Notes under the pieces: model-generated
Told to the model about the DNA's origin: nothing
The model's input: the letters and a program-made list of their open reading frames with translations, nothing else
The model's database searches: none
Shown: in pieces, positions 1 to 11,524 of the stretch
Layout of the letters: each line of letters starts with the position of its first letter
Numbering within the stretch: the first letter of the stretch is position 1
Translations under genes and position numbers: made by a program
IMG/VR virus record: IMGVR_UViG_2648501669_000026
Origin: a virus
Lineage: Duplodnaviria > Heunggongvirae > Uroviricota > Caudoviricetes
Strand: one strand, 5' to 3'
DNA: 12,061 nt

Positions 1-1041
1 ATGGCATTACCGTTAAGGGATTATTATCCAGTTACCCGCGCCGCGAATTTACTTGGCTGTGAAGTGAACGATTTGTTCCACTGGGCGAGAAGGGGGTATA
101 TAGAATTATATGCGTATATTGATTCGGCTTGTGGTGTTGTTCACATGCATGAGCTTGATTATTTTCTCCCATTTATTGATCAAGAGGTGAGGGGGTGGGT
201 TAAATCGTTGCAAGAAGAATCTTTACGGGCTGAACTGGATGATTTTGTGGATGAAAAAATCAACAGAACAATGGGCGTTTTTTGTAAGTTAAATTACCTG
301 AAAGAAGAAAGAATATACTTGTACTCTCTTTTGAACTTTCTGGCTAAAGGATGGGTTAATACGGGCTTCTGCTGGTTAAAAAATCTTAAAAATGAAGCCC
401 GGAAGAGTGTCGAAGATGCCTATTATTTCGAGGATGTATGCGCCGAACATTCTTTTAATCGTGATAGCGAATATATTGCAGAAGTGGGCGGTTTTTTTTC
501 TATTGATTCTCATAATATACTTGAAGATATTGAATTAAATGGATGTTGTATTTGTTCTGGTGAAAATTTTGAAGGTGTATATAGCGGGTTGTCTGTTTTT
601 CTTCCTCAAAGCAATAATATAAATCTAAACAAAAATAACCTGTTTTTATTCAAAGATGATTTTATCATTCTTAATGATTTCTCTTCTGAAAAAGAAGGTG
701 ATACAGGAGAGCAATTGAATAAAAAATATTTATATGGCTATGATATGGAGTCAATATATATTCAATTGAACGAGAAGAATACATTCTTTCAACCCTGCGA
801 TGAGTCGATTAGTAGACAAAATGAGCATAAAAAAGAATTAAACCCTCAGCTTGATAAAAAAACGCGAGTATCCAAAGCAGAAAGAGTATTTATACAATTG
901 GCAATAAAAGAACATTACCACGAGTTTATAGACAGTCCGGGAACCATTGCCAATATATTCACCGCCTTGTCTAAAAAGCATGAAAGCCCTTTCGATTTCG
1001 ATAAAAGCACCATAGGCAGGTGGATTAAAACCGCTCGCTAA
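1..1041 (+). CDS. Hypothetical protein; N-terminal excisionase/MerR-type helix-turn-helix fused to an AT-rich body of unknown function. May be 5'-truncated by the window edge.
   Basis: 346-codon open frame from position 1, stop TAA 1039..1041. Residues ~8-35 (YYPVTRAANLLGCEVNDLFHWARRGYIEL) match the HTH_17/excisionase pattern. GC is about 40-47% in the first ~180 nt and about 23-35% in the rest (hand counts of 60-nt blocks), against about 50% in neighbouring genes. No family recognised for the body. Confidence 0.6.
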   Translation: MALPLRDYYPVTRAANLLGCEVNDLFHWARRGYIELYAYIDSACGVVHMHELDYFLPFIDQEVRGWVKSLQEESLRAELDDFVDEKINRTMGVFCKLNYLKEERIYLYSLLNFLAKGWVNTGFCWLKNLKNEARKSVEDAYYFEDVCAEHSFNRDSEYIAEVGGFFSIDSHNILEDIELNGCCICSGENFEGVYSGLSVFLPQSNNINLNKNNLFLFKDDFIILNDFSSEKEGDTGEQLNKKYLYGYDMESIYIQLNEKNTFFQPCDESISRQNEHKKELNPQLDKKTRVSKAERVFIQLAIKEHYHEFIDSPGTIANIFTALSKKHESPFDFDKSTIGRWIKTAR

Positions 1042-1095: not shown

Positions 1096-1167
1096 TCTCC
1101 TTCTTGCTTTGTGCGGATTGCCTGGGGAAAAATCATTCCCGAAAAGCTCAGGATACGGGAGAAAAAC

Positions 1168-1479
1168 ATGATACAGCGCATATTCATTCCACCAACTCCA
1201 GAACAACGCCGAGCCATACTCGCTGAGTATGGTTTTGACTACGAAGAACGCATCAGGGAAGACACGTGTAAAAAGATGACCACGCTTTCACGTTCCCGGC
1301 GTTGGGAACTGGAGGCGATTGGCGCTTTCCCTTCCCGCCACTCTTTGGGGCGTTGTTCGTGTACTTGGCTATTAAGCGATGTTTTATGGTGGTTGCGTAA
1401 CCCGCCAACTATTGCCGAGGCAAATAATCCGCATGAAAACGCCAAAAAGAAAAAGAGAGACGCTGATTTACTGGAGTAA
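1168..1479 (+). CDS. alpA: AlpA-family (Phage_AlpA-type) HTH transcriptional regulator with a ~35-aa N-terminal extension
   Basis: ATG 1168 is preceded by GGGAGA at 6-nt spacing. The C-terminal half (MTTLSRSRRWELEAIGAFPSRHSLGRCSCTWLLSDVLWWL) fits the AlpA signature LSRSxxxxxxxxGxFPxxxxLGxxxxxWxxxxVxxWL. A GTG at 1111 is a less likely alternative start. Confidence 0.7.
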   Translation: MIQRIFIPPTPEQRRAILAEYGFDYEERIREDTCKKMTTLSRSRRWELEAIGAFPSRHSLGRCSCTWLLSDVLWWLRNPPTIAEANNPHENAKKKKRDADLLE

Positions 1480-1484
1480 CATTT

Positions 1485-2360
1485 ATGGAAAACACAATCA
1501 CGGTATTAACACCCGTTTTTAAAAACTGCCCGGAAATGACCACGATTGCATCGTGGCCCCGTAGTTTTGTATATCAAAAGGGACAATCTGAAGTCTCTTT
1601 GGTTATTCGTCTGATTGATATCATTGCATCAAAATACATGCACAGACACGCCGAGGAATATTGCGATATTACAGGGTATTGCCTGCCGTTAGTGCATAAA
1701 ATCAGTGATGAAGAGATGCGGGATATTGCGGAAGGTTGCGATATTGCCATTACACGCATCCGGCAAAAAATCCGCGAAGCAGAAAATAAAGTGACTGCTC
1801 AGGAAAATAAAATCAGCGAATTGCGTAACGCTCAGTTACAGCCCACGTGTGCTGATAACCCTTATGGTGATCGGTATTCAGTAAAAGACGTTATCGAGCA
1901 TGAAATGCGTCTGCTTGAAAATGAGAAACGGAATTGCGAAAAGACACGCGCTGTCTGTGAGCAGGCTATACGCCTTATTGGTACGGGGAAAAACCTTTCT
2001 CATGATGGCGGTAATGCGTGGATTTTTGCCGCTTCGTTTGACGGACTGGAGCCGGAAACAAATCGCCGTATCAATATTTATAAAGAGATTATTTCGGCTG
2101 TCAGTGCGATCGTCACTTTACGCAATGAAGAAATTAAGCACATTCCTTATTCAGTAATGGCTAAATACAACCATTTACGGCAGGAATATATTAATGATGC
2201 ATTACGTACTCTGACGAAGCATTATTACAGCAACGGCAGTGAAACCATCCGCCATGCGATGACGCTACAGGAATACACCGGAATAAGTATGCCACGAATT
2301 GAACGGGATGCGGCGACCGCTTTGCTGTCTGTACATACCGAAAAGAAAGATATTGTTTAA
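1485..2360 (+). CDS. Hypothetical 291-aa protein with a central coiled-coil; capsid-scaffold-like only by position and size
   Basis: ATG 1485 lies 5 nt after the alpA stop, with GGAG 8 nt upstream. Heptad-like charged segment IRQKIREAENKVTAQENKISELRNAQLQ. No family recognised; it does not match my recollection of P2 GpO. Confidence 0.55.
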   Translation: MENTITVLTPVFKNCPEMTTIASWPRSFVYQKGQSEVSLVIRLIDIIASKYMHRHAEEYCDITGYCLPLVHKISDEEMRDIAEGCDIAITRIRQKIREAENKVTAQENKISELRNAQLQPTCADNPYGDRYSVKDVIEHEMRLLENEKRNCEKTRAVCEQAIRLIGTGKNLSHDGGNAWIFAASFDGLEPETNRRINIYKEIISAVSAIVTLRNEEIKHIPYSVMAKYNHLRQEYINDALRTLTKHYYSNGSETIRHAMTLQEYTGISMPRIERDAATALLSVHTEKKDIV

Positions 2361-2370
2361 GGGGAAATGT

Positions 2371-3423
2371 ATGTTTTTTAATATTAATGACCTGAAAGAT
2401 AAAGCCGGAAGCGTGCTTGAAAATATCAATATTTCATCTCCAGCGGTGAACGAAAATGAAACTGACATTAATAGCGCGCTTGCAGAAAAAGATCTTTACG
2501 CACGCATCAGTGCATACACACAAAAAAATCCGTTTGTGCATTTTATTTCGCCCTCTAACTGGCTTTCCGGGCAAATAAAATACCTGTCAGTTAATCCGCA
2601 TCAGTCCGCTATTAACCTTATTGGGGATGCGCGCTTATCCACCGGACGCGCAGAGGAAGGACGCTTTAGCCGTGCCATGGATATTAAAGGCTCTCCGATT
2701 GAATGCTATGAGATGGACTCATGCGAATATCTCGACTGGATTAACTTGGTTGTGATGGCCAATGTGGCGAATGACGACAAAAACCGCGATGCACTGCTGG
2801 GGATTTTGTGTGGCTATCTGACCAGCAAAATTTATCTGGACGATCTGCGGATTGGCTTTAACGGCAAGTCAGCGGCAACCTTCACCACACCGGACACCAA
2901 CCCGAACGGCGAGGATGTTGCGCCCGGCTGGCATGAAATTGCCAGGAAGGCAAGCGAAGGACGACAGATTATCAGCGATGCCATTACGCTGGGCGCAGGT
3001 GGTGATTTTCCGGGGGTAGATGCACTGGCGCAGCATCTGATTAAAACGAAAATTGCCGCACAGTGGCAGAACGATCCACGCCTTGTGGTGATGGTGGGAT
3101 CAGAACTTGCAGCTGCCGAACGTCTGCGTCTTTTCAGCACCGCAAACGGCGCAGGAGATACCGAAGCCGCCAGCGCATGGGGAAGCACCATTGCCGGGCA
3201 TTTTGCCTTTGTGCCACCGTTTATGCCGGGTAAACGTCTGGCTGTGACCACACTCCCGAACCTGCTGATTAACATCATTGAAGGCTCTTACCGCACAGAG
3301 TTCGATATGAACAAAGACACCAAACGCCTGAACATGCGGGCATGGCGTCATCAGGGCTACGGGCTGGCGGATGTGAATCTTTACGCGGCAGTGGATGAGG
3401 GCGCGATTACGCTTAATCCGTGA
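2371..3423 (+). CDS. Putative P2 GpN-family major capsid-like protein (tentative)
   Basis: ATG 2371 with AAGGGG 5-6 nt upstream; the ORF-track start at 2299 overlaps the preceding gene and is rejected. Collinear motifs GFNG, NP-x3-DVAPGW, GAGGDFPGVDAL and DPRLVVMVGSEL match P2 GpN as I recall it (GFNG, DVAVGW, GKGGDYASLDAL, DPDLVVIVGRQL). Size 350 aa versus 357 aa for GpN. Based on memory only. Confidence 0.55.
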   Translation: MFFNINDLKDKAGSVLENINISSPAVNENETDINSALAEKDLYARISAYTQKNPFVHFISPSNWLSGQIKYLSVNPHQSAINLIGDARLSTGRAEEGRFSRAMDIKGSPIECYEMDSCEYLDWINLVVMANVANDDKNRDALLGILCGYLTSKIYLDDLRIGFNGKSAATFTTPDTNPNGEDVAPGWHEIARKASEGRQIISDAITLGAGGDFPGVDALAQHLIKTKIAAQWQNDPRLVVMVGSELAAAERLRLFSTANGAGDTEAASAWGSTIAGHFAFVPPFMPGKRLAVTTLPNLLINIIEGSYRTEFDMNKDTKRLNMRAWRHQGYGLADVNLYAAVDEGAITLNP

Positions 3424-3440
3424 TGGCTGGATAAGAAAAC

Positions 3441-3460
3441 GGCCCGCAAGATGGCGGGCC
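3441..3460. terminator. GC-rich hairpin after the capsid-like gene, looks bidirectional
   Basis: GGCCCGC (3441..3447), 6-nt loop, GCGGGCC (3454..3460), 18 nt past the stop. A-rich upstream and no T-run downstream on +, so the U-tract is on the - strand side. Confidence 0.35.
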
Positions 3461-3574
3461 GCTAACCACAAAAGGAAAAATCTACGAATCTACAGTTCGG
3501 GAATGATTATGAACTTTTTACGTACAGAAATCAATCACTCAGCGCAATCACGCAAAAATAATTTGCAATATTAC

Positions 3575-3604
3575 TTGACTCGCTTTTTTGTCATGGCGTA
3601 TCGT
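3575..3604 (+). promoter_or_regulatory. Candidate sigma70-type promoter for the early operon
   Basis: TTGACT (3575..3580), 18-bp spacer, TATCGT (3599..3604). Paired AATCAC half-sites lie just upstream (3530..3550). Sequence-only prediction. Confidence 0.3.
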
Positions 3605-3633
3605 TTGCCCGCACCTCATAAAGCGGGTGCCGG

Positions 3634-3817
3634 GTTTGACAGCCTGATTGTTAGAGCGGGTAGCCGCTATATTTCCGTAATGCGGTTTTTTTGTGCCCGT
3701 AATTCCACCCTACCCCGTATTATGGCGGGGCGTAATGGGGGAGCCTTTGCGCTCGCTGGTTTCTCTAACGCCAGTCTGTCAACCCTGTTACGTCCCGCCA
3801 CCATGTTTGACAGCGTG
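3634..3817 (+). promoter_or_regulatory. Untranslated leader with a 13-bp repeat triplet, P4 seqA/seqB/seqC-like
   Basis: GTTTGACAGCCTG (3634..3646) and GTTTGACAGCGTG (3805..3817) are direct repeats, 12/13 identical. CAGTCTGTCAACC (3772..3784) is an imperfect inverted copy (11/13 pairing). A short hairpin plus T7 run sits at 3680..3700. No SD-supported ORF between 3465 and 3856. Confidence 0.3.
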
Positions 3818-3856
3818 CTGGCGAGACTCCGTAAATCAGTTAGAGGAGCCGCCAAA

Positions 3857-4030
3857 ATGGCTATATCAACACGCCCTGATTTTATCTGGCGCTTTATGCA
3901 GTGCCACGGTAAAAATATTCGCCTTCATACCGTTACCGCTGCCAGTGAGCGCGAAGCGCGCGCCATGCTTCCGGCATCCCGTCTGGTCTTTGTTGCCCGT
4001 ATCCGTGTCCGGGAGGCGTGCCATGTTTAA
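3857..4030 (+). CDS. Small 57-aa protein, candidate Icd-like (host cell division inhibitor-like) family
   Basis: ATG 3857 with GAGGAG 8 nt upstream. The segment FIWRF...VTAASEREARAMLP...LVFVARIRV resembles the Icd-like small proteins I recall from P4-type prophages. The ORF-track extension back to 3395 overlaps the upstream gene and hairpin and has no SD. Confidence 0.5.
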   Translation: MAISTRPDFIWRFMQCHGKNIRLHTVTAASEREARAMLPASRLVFVARIRVREACHV

Positions 4031-4996: not shown

Positions 4997-5019
4997 CCCA
5001 CTGCAAAAGGTGCAGTGGG
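4997..5019 (+). terminator. Stable hairpin between the 101-aa ORF and the primase start; weak terminator or translational control element
   Basis: CCCACTGCA (4997..5005), loop AAAGG, TGCAGTGGG (5011..5019), a 9-bp perfect stem. No T-run downstream on +; the 3' arm abuts the primase SD GGAGGG (5020..5025). Confidence 0.3.
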
Positions 5020-5032
5020 GAGGGATTTATAT

Positions 5033-7702
5033 ATGAAACATAACACCAGAAAAGAGATTATTAACCGTCTTATTCGTGATTACAACTTTAAAGAAGAAAA
5101 TAATTATCTTCGCTATGGTGTTTGTCCGCAATGTGGAAAGAAGGAACTGTTTACCAGTCTTGAGAGGCCGTACATCGTACACTGTGGCCGCGAAAATAAA
5201 TGCGGTGCAGACCTGCTGACCAAAGAACTTTACCCGGATGTGTTTTCGTCATGGTCAGATCGCTATATCAGTACGAAAGACGATCCATACGCAGCGGCGG
5301 TAGCTTATCTTCAGGAGGCGCGCAATATTGCTGTGGAGCCACTGAAAGGGGCATTTACTCAGGAGCGATACCAGGACAAGGAAAGCGGCGAACAGGCCGC
5401 TACTGTGCGTTTTACGCTGGCTGACGGCGTGTGGTGGGAGCGCATCATAGACCGACCGGAACGCTTCGCTCGCAAGGCGAATTTTTCCGGCAGTTACAAG
5501 GGGCTGTGGTGGGCTTATCCGGGAGCGGATTTAAGCAAGGCCAAAGAAATCTGGATTTGTGAGGGTATCTTTGATGCCATCAGCCTTAACCAGAATGGCA
5601 TTGCGGCCGTTTCTGTCATGTCTGCCGTGAACTACCCTGATAAATCGCTGGAAGAACTGGCGAAGCTGTGCGGGGATAATCCACGCCCGGTTATCGTGTG
5701 GGCGCTGGATAACGGGCGTGCGGGTGAGCGTTACGCGAAAAAACATGCAGAACGCAGCGCCGAAGACGGCTGGAGAACGGCGGCAGCATTACCAGGTAAA
5801 AACAGCAATAAACGCGACTGGAATGATTTACACATCGCCGGAAAGCTGCGTGGCCATGATGTGAAAAGATATCGTTATTACGGTGATTTATTGTTGGCGA
5901 AATCGCCGAGAGATAAGGCACTAATAATGTTTTCCTTTCGTGAGCGAAAGGAGTTTTATTTTCCCTTTGATAACCGTATTTTCTGGTTCAAGCTGGATAT
6001 TGAGCGCCATATGAAGGCTGTTGAGCGTGTCATTAATGAGCGAAATGTTGACGAAAATGAAGCGCGCAAAATTGCACTTAAGGAATCCGGTGCAGTAAAA
6101 GAAATCGCAAACTGTAACCCAGTACCGCTTTATTACATTCGAAACAATGACACGGATGAAGCATGGTATTACTTCCGTGTTACGTTCCCGGATGGTGCGA
6201 CGGTGAAAAACACCTTTACATCAGGTCAATTAACATCCGCATCTGAATTTAAAAAACGCCTGTTGCATGTGGCAAAAGGTGGTATTTATACCGGAACGAC
6301 TGCGCACCTTGATGCATTAATAAAAAATGACCTTCCCGCAATAAAAAATGTTATCGGTCAGGATTTTATCGGATACAACAAAGAGATTGGCGCATGGCTG
6401 TTTAATGATGTCGCGGTTTGTAATGGTAAAACCTACGAAATCAATGAAGAGGATTATTTTGAAATTGATGGCATAAACGCAAAACCATTGAATAAAAAAC
6501 CAATATTGCAGATTAACTATAAAAAACCGGATGAATTTACAACGTCCTGGGTGGAAGATCTCTGGCTGGCGTTTGGTGAAAAGGGAATTATTACCCTGGC
6601 CTTCTGGCTGGGTTCGTTGTTCAGCGAACAAATCAGGCAGAAAAACGCATCTTACCCCTTTCTTGAGATTACCGGAGAGCCTGGAACGGGTAAAACAACG
6701 CTGATTGATTTTTGCTGGCGTTTGTGTGGCCGTGACAACTATGAAGGTGTTGATCCAACCAAAGGATCGGAATCAGGCTGGAAGCGAACTTTTGGACAGG
6801 TCGCCGGATTACCTGTTGTTCTGATTGAGGCAGACCGGGGGGACAATGCGCAAAAAAGAGGTGCGTTTGACTTTGATAACCTGAAAAGCCTCTATAACGG
6901 CGGTGGTATTGGGGTACGTGGTGTTAAAACTAATGATAACGCCACATATGACCCTGTTTTTAAAGGGGCTGTCGTGATTGCGCAGAATGCCACGGTAAAT
7001 GCCTCATCGGCAATTATCGAGCGTCTGGTACGTATATACACCGATAAAAAACGCCACTCACCAGATAGCCGACTGGCAGCAAAACGGCTGGAGCTTTACC
7101 CCGTTGAGCAGGTATCAGGTTTTATCCATCGGGCAGTAAGCCAGGAGCGGGCGATTATGGATTTGTTTATGGCACTCTCGGATCCTGAAACAGCCCGCCT
7201 TTACAGTTGCGAAAATATTCGCCATCAGCGTATTGCCAAAAATCACGCGCAACTAATTGCACTGGTCAGGGTGCTGAAATGCGTTATTGATATCCCGGAT
7301 GAATGGCTTGATGCCACATGTCTGGAACTGGAGCGAATGGCAGAGGAACAGGCTAAAGCGGTAATGGATGACTTGCCGGAAGTGATGGCGTTCTGGGAGG
7401 CGTTCGACTATCTGGACGGCATAACAGCATACGGCGTAAATCATTTTGGCAAGGGACGGCAGAATGAGTTTGCCGTCAGTATCCCGCAACTTGAGCAGGT
7501 TGCCGCCGTTCACCATGTGAAGATCCAAACCAATCCCGAAATGATAAAGCTTCTCAAGGCTGGCCGTTCTCGATCGCTGATTGGATACAAGCCCGTCCGT
7601 AGCGAGGTATCCAGACAGGCGAACGCCGGGAGGGGGATAGCCGAGGCCAGAGAGAAGGAGGTATTGAAATGCTGGATATTTAGTAACAAGGAGGGGGCTT
7701 AA
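5033..7702 (+). CDS. Bifunctional DNA primase/helicase (N-terminal zinc ribbon, TOPRIM primase, P-loop NTPase), P4 alpha-like replication protein
   Basis: ATG 5033 with GGAGGG 8 nt upstream; the ORF-track GTG at 5015 lies inside the hairpin. Zinc ribbon CPQCG...HCGRENKCG. TOPRIM motifs WICEGIFDAISL and VWALDNGRAGERYA. Walker A GEPGTGKTT and Walker B-like VVLIEAD. 889 aa. Confidence 0.9.
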   Translation: MKHNTRKEIINRLIRDYNFKEENNYLRYGVCPQCGKKELFTSLERPYIVHCGRENKCGADLLTKELYPDVFSSWSDRYISTKDDPYAAAVAYLQEARNIAVEPLKGAFTQERYQDKESGEQAATVRFTLADGVWWERIIDRPERFARKANFSGSYKGLWWAYPGADLSKAKEIWICEGIFDAISLNQNGIAAVSVMSAVNYPDKSLEELAKLCGDNPRPVIVWALDNGRAGERYAKKHAERSAEDGWRTAAALPGKNSNKRDWNDLHIAGKLRGHDVKRYRYYGDLLLAKSPRDKALIMFSFRERKEFYFPFDNRIFWFKLDIERHMKAVERVINERNVDENEARKIALKESGAVKEIANCNPVPLYYIRNNDTDEAWYYFRVTFPDGATVKNTFTSGQLTSASEFKKRLLHVAKGGIYTGTTAHLDALIKNDLPAIKNVIGQDFIGYNKEIGAWLFNDVAVCNGKTYEINEEDYFEIDGINAKPLNKKPILQINYKKPDEFTTSWVEDLWLAFGEKGIITLAFWLGSLFSEQIRQKNASYPFLEITGEPGTGKTTLIDFCWRLCGRDNYEGVDPTKGSESGWKRTFGQVAGLPVVLIEADRGDNAQKRGAFDFDNLKSLYNGGGIGVRGVKTNDNATYDPVFKGAVVIAQNATVNASSAIIERLVRIYTDKKRHSPDSRLAAKRLELYPVEQVSGFIHRAVSQERAIMDLFMALSDPETARLYSCENIRHQRIAKNHAQLIALVRVLKCVIDIPDEWLDATCLELERMAEEQAKAVMDDLPEVMAFWEAFDYLDGITAYGVNHFGKGRQNEFAVSIPQLEQVAAVHHVKIQTNPEMIKLLKAGRSRSLIGYKPVRSEVSRQANAGRGIAEAREKEVLKCWIFSNKEGA

Positions 7703-7704
7703 GT

Positions 7705-8706
7705 ATGTCGATCAGAAAGATGGATGATGGGCGATGGCTGCTCGATATCAGGCCACAAGGGGCGTACGGCAAACGGATACGTAAAATTTTTGTCAGGAAA
7801 GGGAGTGCAGAGGCCTTCGAACAATATATTTTACAGAATTTCCATAACAACCCATGGCTGGCTAAACCTGCTGATCGGCGGCGATTATCAGAGCTGCTTG
7901 ATACATGGTGGATGCTTGATGGCCGTAACCAGGCTTACGGCGATACCTACAGGATCCGGCTGGAGAAAGTGATTCGTGAAATGGGAGATCCGCGCGCCAG
8001 CCAGATGACGCAAAAATTTATGCTTGAGTATCGGTCAGAGAAATTACAGGCCGGCTTAATGCCATCCAGCATTAATCGTGACTTGTGCGTTCTGTCTACC
8101 ATGTTCACGGTGCTGATTGAAGCAGGGGTCTTTCACAACCCGAACCCTGTGCGCAGTATACGCAAGCTAAAAATTCAGAATACAGAGATGGCCTTTCTTT
8201 CTGATGATGAGATTGAACGGCTTCTTGAGCGACTGGAGGGGGATGCGCGTCGTGTTGCCATTCTGTGTCTTTCTACTGGTGCCCGATGGAGTGAAGCATC
8301 GGAACTACGTGGAGAGCATATCGTTGGCAACCGTGTGACGTTTTTTAACACCAAAAACGGAAAATCCCGCTCGGTTCCTGTGGCGGATTCGGTCGTGCCG
8401 CTGATTAAAACCCGTCGGACGGGGTTGTTGTATCAGGTTGATTATCTGGAGTTCCGGGAGATTCTTCAGGAGGTTAAGCCGGATTTGCCGAAGGGGCAGG
8501 CTACGCATGTTATGCGTCATACATTTGCCACACACTTTATGATGAATGGTGGGAATATCGTTACATTACAACGGATTCTTGGACATGCGACTATCCAGCA
8601 AACGATGACTTATGCGCATTTTTCTCCCGACTATCTGGCGGATGCCATGAGGTTTAACCCGATAGCTAACATGGCATTCACTGAACAAAAAGAGCCAGCA
8701 GAGTAA
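7705..8706 (+). CDS. int: Tyrosine recombinase / integrase, P2 Int-like
   Basis: 333 aa. Catalytic-domain motifs AILCLSTGARWSEA, HVMRHTFATHFM and LGHATIQQTMTYAHF; N-terminal DGRWLLDIRPQG...GKRIRK. Close to P2 Int in length and motifs as I recall it. ATG is 2 nt after the primase stop and shares the SD AAGGAGGGGG. Confidence 0.92.
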   Translation: MSIRKMDDGRWLLDIRPQGAYGKRIRKIFVRKGSAEAFEQYILQNFHNNPWLAKPADRRRLSELLDTWWMLDGRNQAYGDTYRIRLEKVIREMGDPRASQMTQKFMLEYRSEKLQAGLMPSSINRDLCVLSTMFTVLIEAGVFHNPNPVRSIRKLKIQNTEMAFLSDDEIERLLERLEGDARRVAILCLSTGARWSEASELRGEHIVGNRVTFFNTKNGKSRSVPVADSVVPLIKTRRTGLLYQVDYLEFREILQEVKPDLPKGQATHVMRHTFATHFMMNGGNIVTLQRILGHATIQQTMTYAHFSPDYLADAMRFNPIANMAFTEQKEPAE

Positions 8707-8953: not shown

Positions 8954-9277
8954 AAAATCCGGGGGGGGGTGCGGAAACGGGTTACAAAGGTTACAAACAG
9001 AAAAATATATTATATATCAATATATTATAATACATTTAAAAGGTTACAAACGGGTTACAACAGGGTTACATGTAACCTTTATGTAGTGGTTACTGTTGGT
9101 TACAGGTTAAATTTATAATTAATTGATAATTAATCTGTTTTTTAGAGCTGTAACCTCGTGTAACCTTCTGTAACCTCAAAAAGGTTACAAGCAATTTCAT
9201 TTAAAATCATGATGTTAATGTGTGTTTTAAGGAGCTGTAACCTTTGTAACCCGTTTCCGCACCCCCTACCGGATTTT
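8954..9277. repeat. Iteron array bounded by a long inverted repeat; putative origin of replication of the element
   Basis: 13 exact heptamers. GGTTACA on + at 8980, 8989, 9042, 9053, 9064, 9098, 9183; TGTAACC at 9071, 9149, 9159, 9169, 9236, 9245. Three are phased at exactly 10 bp (9149/9159/9169). Palindrome GGTTACATGTAACC at 9064..9077. 30-bp perfect inverted repeat 8966..8995 / 9236..9265, extending to 42 bp (8954..8995 / 9236..9277) with 2 mismatches. AT-rich core 9001..9040 (2 G/C in 40 nt). Confidence 0.6.
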
Positions 9278-9415: not shown

Positions 9416-9670
9416 GTGCGCAGACAGAAAGCGCGGTGTTTTTGCTGTGGTGAGCGCGCAGTGATTGAAAAGACCGTCTGGAAAGATGATCGGTTTGCTG
9501 ACGTGTATTACCGTTGCAAGCGTCTTGAGTGCGGACATACCTGGGTAATGAATCTGACCTACTCGCACACGCTGACCCCCAGCGGACTGGAGAACGGCGT
9601 GTTGAAGCTGTTGATCGAACGAATGCGCCCGGAGGAAAAACAAATGGCGCTGGAACTACTACAGGCCTGA
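9416..9670 (+). CDS. Ogr/Delta-family zinc-finger transcriptional activator-like protein
   Basis: GTG 9416 with GAGGTG 5 nt upstream. C-x2-C, 22 residues, C-x4-C (CFCCGERA...CKRLEC), the same cysteine spacing as P2 Ogr as I recall it. 84 aa. Confidence 0.7.
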   Translation: MRRQKARCFCCGERAVIEKTVWKDDRFADVYYRCKRLECGHTWVMNLTYSHTLTPSGLENGVLKLLIERMRPEEKQMALELLQA

Positions 9671-9715: not shown

Positions 9716-10206
9716 GTGATGTTCATGACTGCAGATAGGGTGCCGTTCCGGCCTTTACCCTGGCAACCGATTGACGGGGAAGTTGACTTCCCCGTCGCGG
9801 TTCCTTACTGTGTAGACTTACATTGTAAGAATGCCGCAATTTCCGTTCCTGCAAACCTGAATCGCAACTCACAAGGTGATGTGTGGAGGATCCAGATTAT
9901 CGCTACTGCGGTTAAACACAGTAGCAGGGTTTTTAACGGAATTTGCGTCATAGCGCTTGCTCCTTTGGTGGAGAGGCGCTAACCTTCTACTTGTCAAGGT
10001 ACGAAGTGTTAGGGCCTCGGGTTAACATTAAAGTTGACTCGGGGCCTTTCCACATCTGGCCTTCGGGTATTCCCTCCGACCATCAGCCGAAAGGCACCCG
10101 CAGCGATTCTAGCCTGGTTGCCATACCCGCATCAATCACCCGCCACATCGCTTTATCGCTCGCAAATCAGCAACCTGACGCTACTTTACGTCGCTCTGTC
10201 CGGCAT

Positions 10207-10618
10207 TTTACGTCACCTCATCGCACCGCGTTTTATTCGTCCCTTCTGACCGTTCTGCCTCTCCCTGTTGTGAAGTTTTTTTCAGTTTCATTTTGTTCGC
10301 CGTATGCCGTCAGGGCGCGTCACGTCTGGATTTTCGCGAAATGCTGCCGGGCGTGAAATTCTGCCACCGGGCCAAACAGCCTCACGTAAAGTATGAAAAA
10401 GCCTTAAATATCATGAAAGTAGTCACGCGCAGCACAAAAAAAGAACTGAAAACCGGGAAGAAAAATTGCAAAAAATTTCACTGAATGAAATTTTGCTTTT
10501 GCACGAATCCCCAGAACTGACGCACCCTGCCAGCTATTTTTTCACACCAGAAAACTGAAAAAGTGTTTCGACACGAAACCCGCGGGTTGGAGGGGGTAGC
10601 GCGGTTTACGTCACCTCA
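10207..10618. repeat. 14-bp exact direct repeat TTTACGTCACCTCA (two copies) with several shorter related copies
   Basis: Exact copies at 10207..10220 and 10605..10618, 398 bp apart. Related TTTACG(T/C)(C/G) cores at 10185..10193, 10622..10632, 10636..10644 and 10740..10748; inverted copy at 10383..10390. Confidence 0.6.
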
Positions 10619-10690
10619 CGTTTTACGTCACGCCGTTTACGCGGCGTATGCATACAGCGCCAGAACGGCACACAGAAAGCTGATTCGGGG

Positions 10691-10767: not shown

Positions 10768-11277
10768 TCAGACCAGACCGTAGTCATTTGCGGTCGATTC
10801 ATCGTTGCTGGCAAAGCTGGCAGCCGCCTGAGTCATGGCTGATTTTAGCGGCGATGCTTCTGCTTCAAGCAATGTCCTGAGCTGGCTTAGTGGAATGCGC
10901 TGGCTGAACTCTGCCAGCCCTTCGCTAAAGCTAAATTGCTTTGGTGACTCATCACCACACGCAATCCATGCGAAGTCCTCAGCATCACCACGCTGCTTTA
11001 ACTCAAAGAAGCACGGGAAGTCAAACCTCTGGCAGAAGCGTTTAGCTCCGTCGATGGTGGAGAAGTAAGCCGCTTCCAGTCCGCCCTGTTCGTCGGGCAT
11101 GGCGACCACATACCTTACAGGCGCGCGCTCTTCCAGTTCCTGTGCAATTCCGGCGCAGAACGTCGGCGTATAGCCGCTGTTCGCAATCCTGTTCATCGCT
11201 CCCCGCCAGCCGAATGGGTTGTTTTCTGGTGTGCCGGCTCTGGTGTCGGTGCCTGTGAATATAGTTTTATTGCTCAT
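10768..11277 (-). CDS. Hypothetical 169-aa protein, monocistronic, divergent from hpt
   Basis: ATG at 11277..11275 with AGGA about 10 nt upstream. The only long ORF in an otherwise ORF-poor region; protein-like composition. No family recognised. It is not Gcd, which is the upstream neighbour of hpt in E. coli K-12. Confidence 0.6.
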   Translation of the reverse strand: MSNKTIFTGTDTRAGTPENNPFGWRGAMNRIANSGYTPTFCAGIAQELEERAPVRYVVAMPDEQGGLEAAYFSTIDGAKRFCQRFDFPCFFELKQRGDAEDFAWIACGDESPKQFSFSEGLAEFSQRIPLSQLRTLLEAEASPLKSAMTQAAASFASNDESTANDYGLV

Positions 11278-11524
11278 CTTTGTTTAATCCTGTTGATTGG
11301 TTGTCGACGTTGCGACCTGGCTGAATCATAACAGTGAGTAGAGCGGGCGCAAGTTGGTGTGAGGTGACACATAAGGTACAATTTGCGGCCTTAAAGTGTT
11401 CTCATGTGTTCTGGTGTTGTCTGCCTGCGATATTGTTTTGTGTATCAATTGGTGTATCAATATCGATATTTGCAGAGAATTAAAACGAAATTAAATTCAC
11501 TGAAATCAATGTGATAGGTTATTG

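Follow-up and report, generated by a model that had tools for sequence, protein, structure and literature searches.

A capsid gene and its partner gene

We analysed a stretch of 12,061 nt assigned to the Caudoviricetes (IMG/VR record IMGVR_UViG_2648501669_000026), hereafter the window, which makes up most of an island of about 12.7 kb that lies between gcd and hpt in close relatives in complete Escherichia coli genomes. This study concerns two adjacent plus-strand genes of the island, one of 291 amino acids (aa; 1485..2360), an open reading frame (ORF) of an unannotated, predicted all-alpha family that we call the partner gene, and one of 350 aa (2371..3423) that encodes a divergent homologue of the P2-family (HK97-fold) major capsid proteins. 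The two are separated by 10 nt (2361-2370), and a gene of the alpA family ends at 1479, 5 nt before the partner gene. A preliminary description made from the letters of the DNA had placed the two ORFs with this gap directly under an AlpA gene, and ORF calling confirmed its coordinates. The ATG start of the capsid gene is preceded by AAGGGGA; a longer, TTG-started ORF from 2299 was rejected, as it overlaps the upstream gene and relatives are annotated without that start. Two other candidate signals were also dropped. The sole match to the late-promoter box of Ogr/Delta-type activators (TGT-N12-ACA) lies inside the partner gene (one match against 2.8 expected by chance), and a hairpin at 3438-3463, after the capsid gene, has its T-run on the minus strand only, so that no terminator is claimed there.

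The 350-aa protein is a divergent P2-family capsid protein

The 350-aa protein is a genuine but divergent P2-family, HK97-fold major capsid protein. It matched Pfam family PF05125 (Phage_cap_P2) with E = 5.2e-44 and 151 bits, against a gathering cut-off of 27, over profile positions 43-325 of 327, and PHROG 70 ('major head protein') with E = 2.7e-54; a phmmer search of the PDB returned gpN of P2 (7jw1) with E = 3.8e-13. An AlphaFold model built with 30 homologues (predicted local distance difference test, pLDDT, 75; predicted template modelling score 0.72; residues 1-59 of low confidence) had gpN in the P4 procapsid (7jw1) as its top Foldseek match (E = 1.5e-21, template modelling score 0.66-0.79), followed by the capsid protein of phiRSA1 (7oz4, E = 1.3e-20) and then by generic HK97-fold capsids. 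The likeness to P2 GpN that the preliminary description had drawn from collinear motifs is borne out by the profile, phmmer and structure searches, with a significant Phage_cap_P2 match and a predicted HK97 fold nearest to gpN. Its account of the known systems (O of 284 aa next to N of 357 aa in P2, and the gene content of P4) was likewise correct.

Compared with P2 (AF063097), the protein shares the family and fold of gpN but is only 25-29% identical to it. Residues 1-63 lie outside the family profile and are unrelated to the corresponding region of gpN, which holds a 31-residue propeptide, and the 'sir loop' of the A-domain is 12 residues shorter than in gpN, where it forms the binding site of Sid (residues 183-224; PMC7552001). 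It is 41% identical to the capsid protein of the putative helper, a P2-related prophage that co-occurs with the pair in E. coli A36. The gene is routinely annotated as 'P2 family phage major capsid protein', and the sequence itself is not new.

The 291-aa partner protein belongs to a capsid-linked family

The 291-aa protein had no match in Pfam, PHROG, NCBIfam or PADLOC, and a first homology search returned close relatives in E. coli and Yersinia only. A gene lies between alpA and the capsid gene in all 20 distant satellite loci for which this stretch was available; most of these genes encode about 280-290 aa, three encode 317-340 aa and two are disrupted. The gap between partner and capsid gene ranges from -1 to about 90 nt across the full-length satellites examined. 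Intermediates at 40, 35, 28 and 16% identity connect the window protein to the distant members in an alignment with five invariant residues (R42, T63, E77, Y247 and Y248), and a hidden Markov model (HMM) made from the distant partners alone gave a collinear match to the window protein (23 bits). A HMMER scan of 1.84 billion representative proteins recovered 55 clusters of the family at 50% identity, near-full-length members having about 273-308 aa and about a quarter of the clusters being short fragments. The family was found only together with this capsid type.

An AlphaFold (AF2) model of the partner is all-helical, with a hairpin formed by residues 75-115 and 133-168 (pLDDT 80-91 there). 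Foldseek of this model against the PDB, which includes Sid (7jw1), gave a best match of E = 0.49 to unrelated helices, and a PDB profile search gave weak matches of coiled-coil type only. The preliminary description had called the protein coiled-coil, which stands as a prediction. Its further suggestion of a GpO-type scaffold did not hold up: the GpO model search gave no match, the hhalign probability stayed below 1% (0.6% for P2 gpO itself, 0.5% for a profile made from 50 of its homologues) and no structural match was found. With hhalign probabilities of 0.1% against Sid and 0.2% against Psu, and negative results from the HMM libraries, Foldseek and the PDB profile search, homology of the partner to gpO, Sid or Psu was rejected. 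It also has no protease domain.

On sequence comparison and prediction, the 291-aa family is thus a small, unannotated, all-helical and capsid-linked family unrelated to gpO, Sid and Psu. Its gene lies directly upstream of the capsid gene, where phages have gpO ahead of gpN, and the order of a helical protein followed by the capsid mimics O-N of P2, the helical prediction being of low confidence. From this position and the predicted helical structure, not from homology, we infer a scaffold-like or size-determining role, which the protein may reasonably be given.

Alternatively, only the capsid protein would be structural, and the partner would be a regulator or helper-manipulating factor, such as a derepressor, anti-termination factor or replication accessory, that lies in the alpA operon without a part in morphogenesis. 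It directly follows a regulator gene and resembles neither gpO, Sid, Psu nor another scaffold, and Psu of P4 is a precedent for a capsid-associated satellite protein that is also a transcription factor (PMC11718236). We regard this as distinctly unlikely, since the gene adjoins the capsid gene in every full-length satellite examined and occurs only with this capsid type, and since the protein is long, helical and rich in hairpins, like known scaffolds, and sits in the gpO slot.

Satellite and phage loci with this capsid type

When one genome was scanned for each species, 80 loci with this capsid type were obtained, which were sorted by marker searches. Fifty-seven are phage head modules with the order ogr, Q, P, O, N, M, L followed by lysis and tail genes, and with a replicase of the gpA or alpha-like type, int, C and cox upstream. 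Twenty-two have satellite-type neighbours only. The 21 satellite loci studied in detail follow the order alpA, partner, capsid, further genes, alpha, delta and integrase and have no head or tail genes, and four further look-ups in Salmonella and E. coli showed the same order, two of them (Salmonella) at the gcd-hpt site. This arrangement was found in Escherichia, Salmonella, Yersinia, Rahnella, Pectobacterium, Brenneria, Xenorhabdus, Proteus, Enterobacter, Kosakonia, Citrobacter and others. The pair stands next to alpA in every full-length related island examined across the Enterobacterales, with one exception among islands of similar backbone (DLI.6n, see below). A neighbour-joining tree with gpN as its root shows the phage capsids as one monophyletic group and the satellite capsids outside it, the clade of the window being the most divergent.

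Both ORFs are intact in nearly all relatives and under purifying selection, with ratios of nonsynonymous to synonymous substitution rates (dN/dS) of 0.12-0.34 (partner 0.15-0.31, capsid 0.12-0.34). These results bear on the idea that the pair is an inert remnant, left over from a P2-like head module that was acquired by recombination with a prophage and is now in decay. Exchange of DNA with a P2-related prophage did occur (second integrase, ogr and hok region, 78-88% nt identity; see below), and the window-type pair is rare in E. coli, where it was found in 9-11 of 5426 complete genomes. Because both genes are under purifying selection, we nevertheless reject this idea as very improbable; in addition, the synteny extends across families of Enterobacterales, the satellite capsids form old lineages apart from those of phages, and the upstream gene is not a fragment of gpO. 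Among the options left by the preliminary description, a capsid-forming or size-redirecting function fits best and a decoy is less likely, and its remnant option is rejected on the grounds of dN/dS, cross-genus synteny and separate capsid lineages.

In twelve satellites a third gene of 173-177 aa directly follows the capsid gene and encodes the protease domain of gpO alone (PF05929 positions 3-142 of 268, E = 4e-41). It was found in Rahnella, Pectobacterium, Yersinia, Brenneria, Xenorhabdus, Proteus and one metagenome-assembled genome (L006 10868-11389, and the same position in L008-L013, L015, L017, L041, L079 and L081). These genes lack the C-terminal scaffolding domain of gpO (residues 195-284; PMC7552001), and the partner could supply the missing scaffolding function in the satellites that carry them.

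The exceptional island, in E. coli DLI.6n (L002 14697-16678), has a window-like backbone (aa identity of 96% for ORF1, the first ORF of the window, and 98% for the primase) and carries no pair after alpA. A different pair stands after delta, consisting of a 236-aa protein without assignment and a 423-aa P2-family capsid protein that has a 133-residue N-terminal extension and is nearer to gpN (35%). The presence of another capsid pair at another site suggests that the capsid cassette is swappable.

Some of the phage-type loci (L037, L039, L044, L052, L067 and L069) have an alpha-like primase in place of gpA, 50-51% identical to that of the window, and several have an integrase 51-55% identical to the second integrase of the window. 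The shared alpha-like primase indicates that the replication modules of the satellites and these phages are related.

Other features of the island

The genes of the island run in one direction, in contrast to P4. A first integrase of P4 type lies just upstream of the window, as seen in relatives. It is followed by ORF1 (346 aa, 1..1041, plus strand), which has no family match; the slot between first integrase and alpA is filled in most relatives with a left-end integrase. The AlpA/Vis-family regulator-excisionase gene (1159..1479, plus strand) was identified by PF05930 (E = 5e-6), PHROG 2790 (E = 5e-30) and tblastn with P4 Vis/orf88. Its ORF opens at a GTG at 1111, the probable start being the ATG at 1159, and it is the first gene of the run alpA-partner-capsid. 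The capsid gene is followed by an antisense immunity RNA of the C4/CI type known from P1/P7 and P4 (3718..3805, plus strand), which scored 72.8 bits with Rfam family RF01695 (gathering score 45, E = 5e-13). It lies inside an ORF that is annotated as 'Icd-like protein' in relatives (corresponding to 3509-4030 of the window); a shorter ORF that starts at 3858 (3858-4030) is probably the real Icd-like one, as in the c4-icd arrangement of P1. Small ORFs fill the space between the Icd-like ORF and the gene of the alpha-like primase/helicase (895 aa, 5015..7702, plus strand; PHROG 1139, E = 1e-300; Toprim_2, E = 1.5e-12).

A second integrase of P2/helper type follows (333 aa, 7705..8706, plus strand; PF24624, PF00589), and just 3' of it and the primase lies an iteron-type replication origin (8954..9277) with at least 12 GGTTACA repeats in both orientations and an AT-rich centre, within a 42-nt inverted repeat that is 95% complementary. 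The remaining genes are those of an Ogr/Delta zinc-finger late-gene activator (84 aa, 9416..9670, plus strand; PF04606, E = 1e-10), a Hok/Gef toxin (9805..9951, minus strand; PF01848, E = 8e-9) and a 169-aa ORF without family match (10768-11277, minus strand), which belongs to the variable end region that is occupied by mazEF or hicAB in relatives. A 26-nt imperfect direct repeat (GTGTATCAATTGGTGTATCAATATCG) flanks the island; its attR-side copy is located beside hpt (11440..11465), and its attL-side copy is found upstream of the first integrase in the relative L001 (L001 3575-3600 and 3425-3450). The attL side of L001 also holds a short copy of the start region of hpt (GATGAAACAT..TGTAGAAGTAATG).

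No portal or terminase was detected among those ORFs of the window that were scanned with HMM libraries, by tblastn with Q, P and M of P2, or in the annotation of the L001 island, in agreement with the preliminary description, and tblastn found none of Q, P and M in any satellite locus. The head module of portal Q, terminase P/M, scaffold O and completion protein L, all of which surround the phage-type homologues, is missing from the window and the satellite loci. For sid and psu there was no tblastn match of E < 1e-4 in the window or the related loci and no PHROG match. Epsilon had no Pfam match in the window; in relative L086 the gene in the corresponding position matched PF25738 weakly (25.3 bits, against a cut-off of 27), and in L090 an unmarked match to PF25738 belongs to the gene one upstream of that slot. 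P4-like satellites have been defined by seven components, integrase, Psu, Delta, Sid, AlpA, epsilon and alpha (PMC10085698). Of the P4-like set of SatelliteFinder, the island has integrase, AlpA, alpha-type primase and Delta and lacks Sid and Psu; with these two absent and epsilon undetected in the window, it falls outside the seven-component definition. By its gene content it is nonetheless related to P4 in its logic.

A candidate cos element

A conserved non-coding element (10532..10668, plus strand) stands downstream of delta in 24 related satellite loci, or in 25 if the window is counted; nhmmer detected it once in each of them and once in the A36 prophage, near the right end of the latter. 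Its core at 10585-10603 is GGTTGGAGGGGGTAGCGCG in the window and the prophage, and GGCGGGTGCGGTGTAGTGC is commoner in distant satellites; the latter agrees with the 19-nt cos of P2 at 11 of 19 positions. The position after delta parallels the order delta-(psu)-cos of P4, and on these grounds the element is a candidate cos. The cos sites of P2 and P4 themselves had no match within three mismatches in the window, and no locus gave a blastn-short match to the cos region of either. Between ogr and Q, the phage loci have intergenic DNA that shares nothing with the satellites, and none of the phage records searched holds the element. A match of 14 of 19 positions to P2 cos in the DLI.6n island was at chance level and was dropped.

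The putative helper

Several parts of the window are closely related at the nucleotide level to the P2-related prophage of A36 (L093), which is about 35 kb long and has a P2-type early region and head module. Identity is 88% for the second integrase, 87% for ogr/delta, 83% for the candidate cos element (L093 42851-42987) and 78% for a hok region of 385 bp (window 9735-10119), which lies at the right end of the prophage (L093 43416-43796). Delta of the window is also 89% identical (aa) to Ogr of a P2-related phage-type locus of E. albertii. The second integrase, ogr/delta and hok cassette that both carry point to recent exchange of modules between the satellite and its putative helper, and the island thus has two integrases of different types.

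Phages of this type occur in 43 of the 5426 complete E. coli genomes (0.8%) and in four of nine genomes that carry the pair (STEC313, STEC316, ETEC1716 and A36), where 0.07 would be expected (hypergeometric P = 4e-7, uncorrected for strain relatedness). Six species genomes of the scan hold both a satellite and a phage locus. The sequenced phage capsids nearest to the helper type are those of ESSI-2 and vB_YenM_324 (58%) and phiO18P (49%), so that the likely helper is a P2-related lineage rather than P2 itself. In the helper-type capsids the sir loop is 8 residues shorter than in gpN; we speculate that this may explain the lack of a Sid-type external scaffold.

Comparison with known satellites

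Like P4 (X51522; PMC7552001), the island has AlpA/Vis, a C4/CI-type RNA, an alpha-type primase and Delta/Ogr followed by a (candidate) cos, has a genome of about 11-13 kb and appears to exploit a phage with a P2-type head module. Unlike P4, it has no sid or psu, carries a capsid gene and a partner gene after alpA, and has a helper-type second integrase. Its alpha shows no tblastn similarity to alpha of P4 and is related to the primases of some P2-related phages at the 50-51% identity given above.

The closest functional parallel is Ccm of SaPIbov5 (Staphylococcus aureus; PMC5052747, PMC8569155), likewise a satellite homologue of the HK97-fold capsid protein of the helper that is encoded without portal or terminase. 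Ccm occupies the pentamers and sets the small capsid size (PMC8569155), thereby redirecting the helper to small capsids, and SaPIbov5 is packaged via a shared cos, as we propose for the island. The two differ in host phylum, in satellite type (phage-inducible chromosomal island, PICI, as opposed to P4-related) and in capsid family. No dedicated partner has been reported for Ccm, in contrast to the 291-aa protein, and a size shift here would lead from isometric T=7 to smaller isometric heads, whereas that of SaPIbov5 leads from prolate to isometric.

Capsid-forming PICIs (cf-PICIs; bioRxiv 10.1101/2022.09.08.507074; PDB 9gyi) also have their own HK97-fold capsid, in clades apart from phage capsids. 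They carry a full head and packaging module of capsid, portal, protease, connectors, TerS and TerL, whereas the island has capsid and partner only and lacks the other components by HMM scans and tblastn, some relatives having the protease domain. The capsid families differ as well (Foldseek E = 1e-10 to 9gyi, against 1e-21 to gpN).

EcCICFT073 (c1499/c1500) and PmCI172 (PMC6092414, PMC6893505) resemble the island as Gram-negative elements with int-alpA-primase, an Icd-like region and a lone capsid homologue that is of the type of their helper. In EcCICFT073 the capsid protein forms a pair with a decoration protein resembling gpD (PF02924); it belongs to the lambda gpE family (PF03864) and has no sequence similarity to the window protein; the EcCICFT073 'capsid protein' was thus rejected as a member of the same family. 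In the open-access papers and bioRxiv preprints searched, we found no description of P4-related satellites without Sid and Psu that carry a P2-family capsid and a partner.

Proposed role of the cassette

On balance, we think that the two genes are probably a capsid-morphogenesis cassette of a P4-related satellite, which would yield satellite-sized heads completed with portal, terminase and tails of the helper; the cassette probably replaces Sid and Psu. Upon induction of, or infection by, a P2-related helper with a gpQ/P/O/N/M/L head module, the run alpA-partner-capsid would be expressed. The capsid protein, together with the partner as scaffold or size determinant, would then either build small shells on the helper portal or co-assemble with the helper capsid protein and force small shells. 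The protease of helper gpO, or the protease domain of the satellite itself where present, would mature these shells, the helper terminase would fill them with island DNA via the shared cos-like site, and helper tails would be attached to the filled heads. We infer the timing of expression, particle assembly, small size, role of the partner and function of the cos-like element. The satellite protein may form whole shells, may form pentons only, as Ccm does (PMC8569155), or may act as a poison.

A stricter version is possible but more tentative. According to it, these islands would be a hitherto unrecognised, semi capsid-forming branch of the P4-related satellites, which build the whole shell of a satellite-sized head from their own capsid protein on a new class of helical, size-determining scaffold (the 291-aa family), mature it in some lineages with their own stand-alone gpO-type protease, and steal only portal, terminase, completion functions and tails from a P2-related helper.

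Several observations weigh against a capsid-morphogenesis role. The 350-aa protein scored 142.2 bits with the NCBIfam equivalog TIGR01551, under the cut-off of 219.65, and for this reason need not act as gpN does. Neither hhalign nor Foldseek nor the PDB profile search relates the partner to any scaffold protein, and the overall confidence of its model is low (pLDDT 62). No Ogr/Delta late-promoter box lies upstream of the cassette, and no convincing promoter or plus-strand terminator bracketing it was found. The cos assignment comes from conservation alone, and the element of the prophage stands after the tail genes, not beside Q/P as in P2. Five of the nine genomes that carry the pair are without the proposed helper. 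In EcCICFT073, interference with lambda persisted when the capsid and decoration homologues were deleted, and full-size heads were used for packaging (PMC6092414), so that a lone satellite capsid homologue is not proof of size redirection.

An alternative is a role in interference or defence only, in which capsid homologue and partner would be dominant-negative and poison or mis-size the heads of the helper or of a competing P2-related phage, which would protect the host population, with no shell made for the island. The divergence of the protein (41% to the helper capsid, score under the equivalog cut-off), its replaced N-terminus and its shortened sir loop could leave it unable to assemble yet able to bind the helper capsid; anti-phage systems are known to be carried by satellites of the P4-like type (PMC9122126), and the capsid pair of DLI.6n lies in a variable region by mazEF, where relatives carry toxin-antitoxin cargo. 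We consider such a role unlikely, because in nearly every island of the type the cassette is a core, syntenic element beside alpA and not hotspot cargo, because the islands have no other capsid-size function at a P4-like size of about 11-13 kb, and because some relatives add a gpO-type protease domain, which is sensible for building capsids. There was also no meaningful PADLOC match, and identity with a defence system was rejected on this ground.

The capsid-morphogenesis reading would have consequences beyond this island. P4, which pirates capsids by means of the external scaffold Sid, has been the textbook example for decades, and a widespread sister group of satellites may use its own copy of the capsid protein and an unrelated partner to the same end. 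In that case capsid redirection would have arisen at least twice in one satellite lineage, and Ccm of SaPIbov5 would gain a counterpart in Gram-negative hosts that is genetically tractable. An unannotated family of 55 clusters would join the short list of capsid size determinants, and a P2-related phage lineage that has been little studied would be paired with its satellites. Should the stricter, semi capsid-forming version hold, these islands would represent an evolutionary intermediate between P4, which has no shell protein, and cf-PICIs with their full head module. Current satellite-detection tools for which Sid and Psu are obligatory would probably overlook or under-classify such islands, and a lone 'P2 family major capsid protein' annotation may be misread as a prophage remnant.

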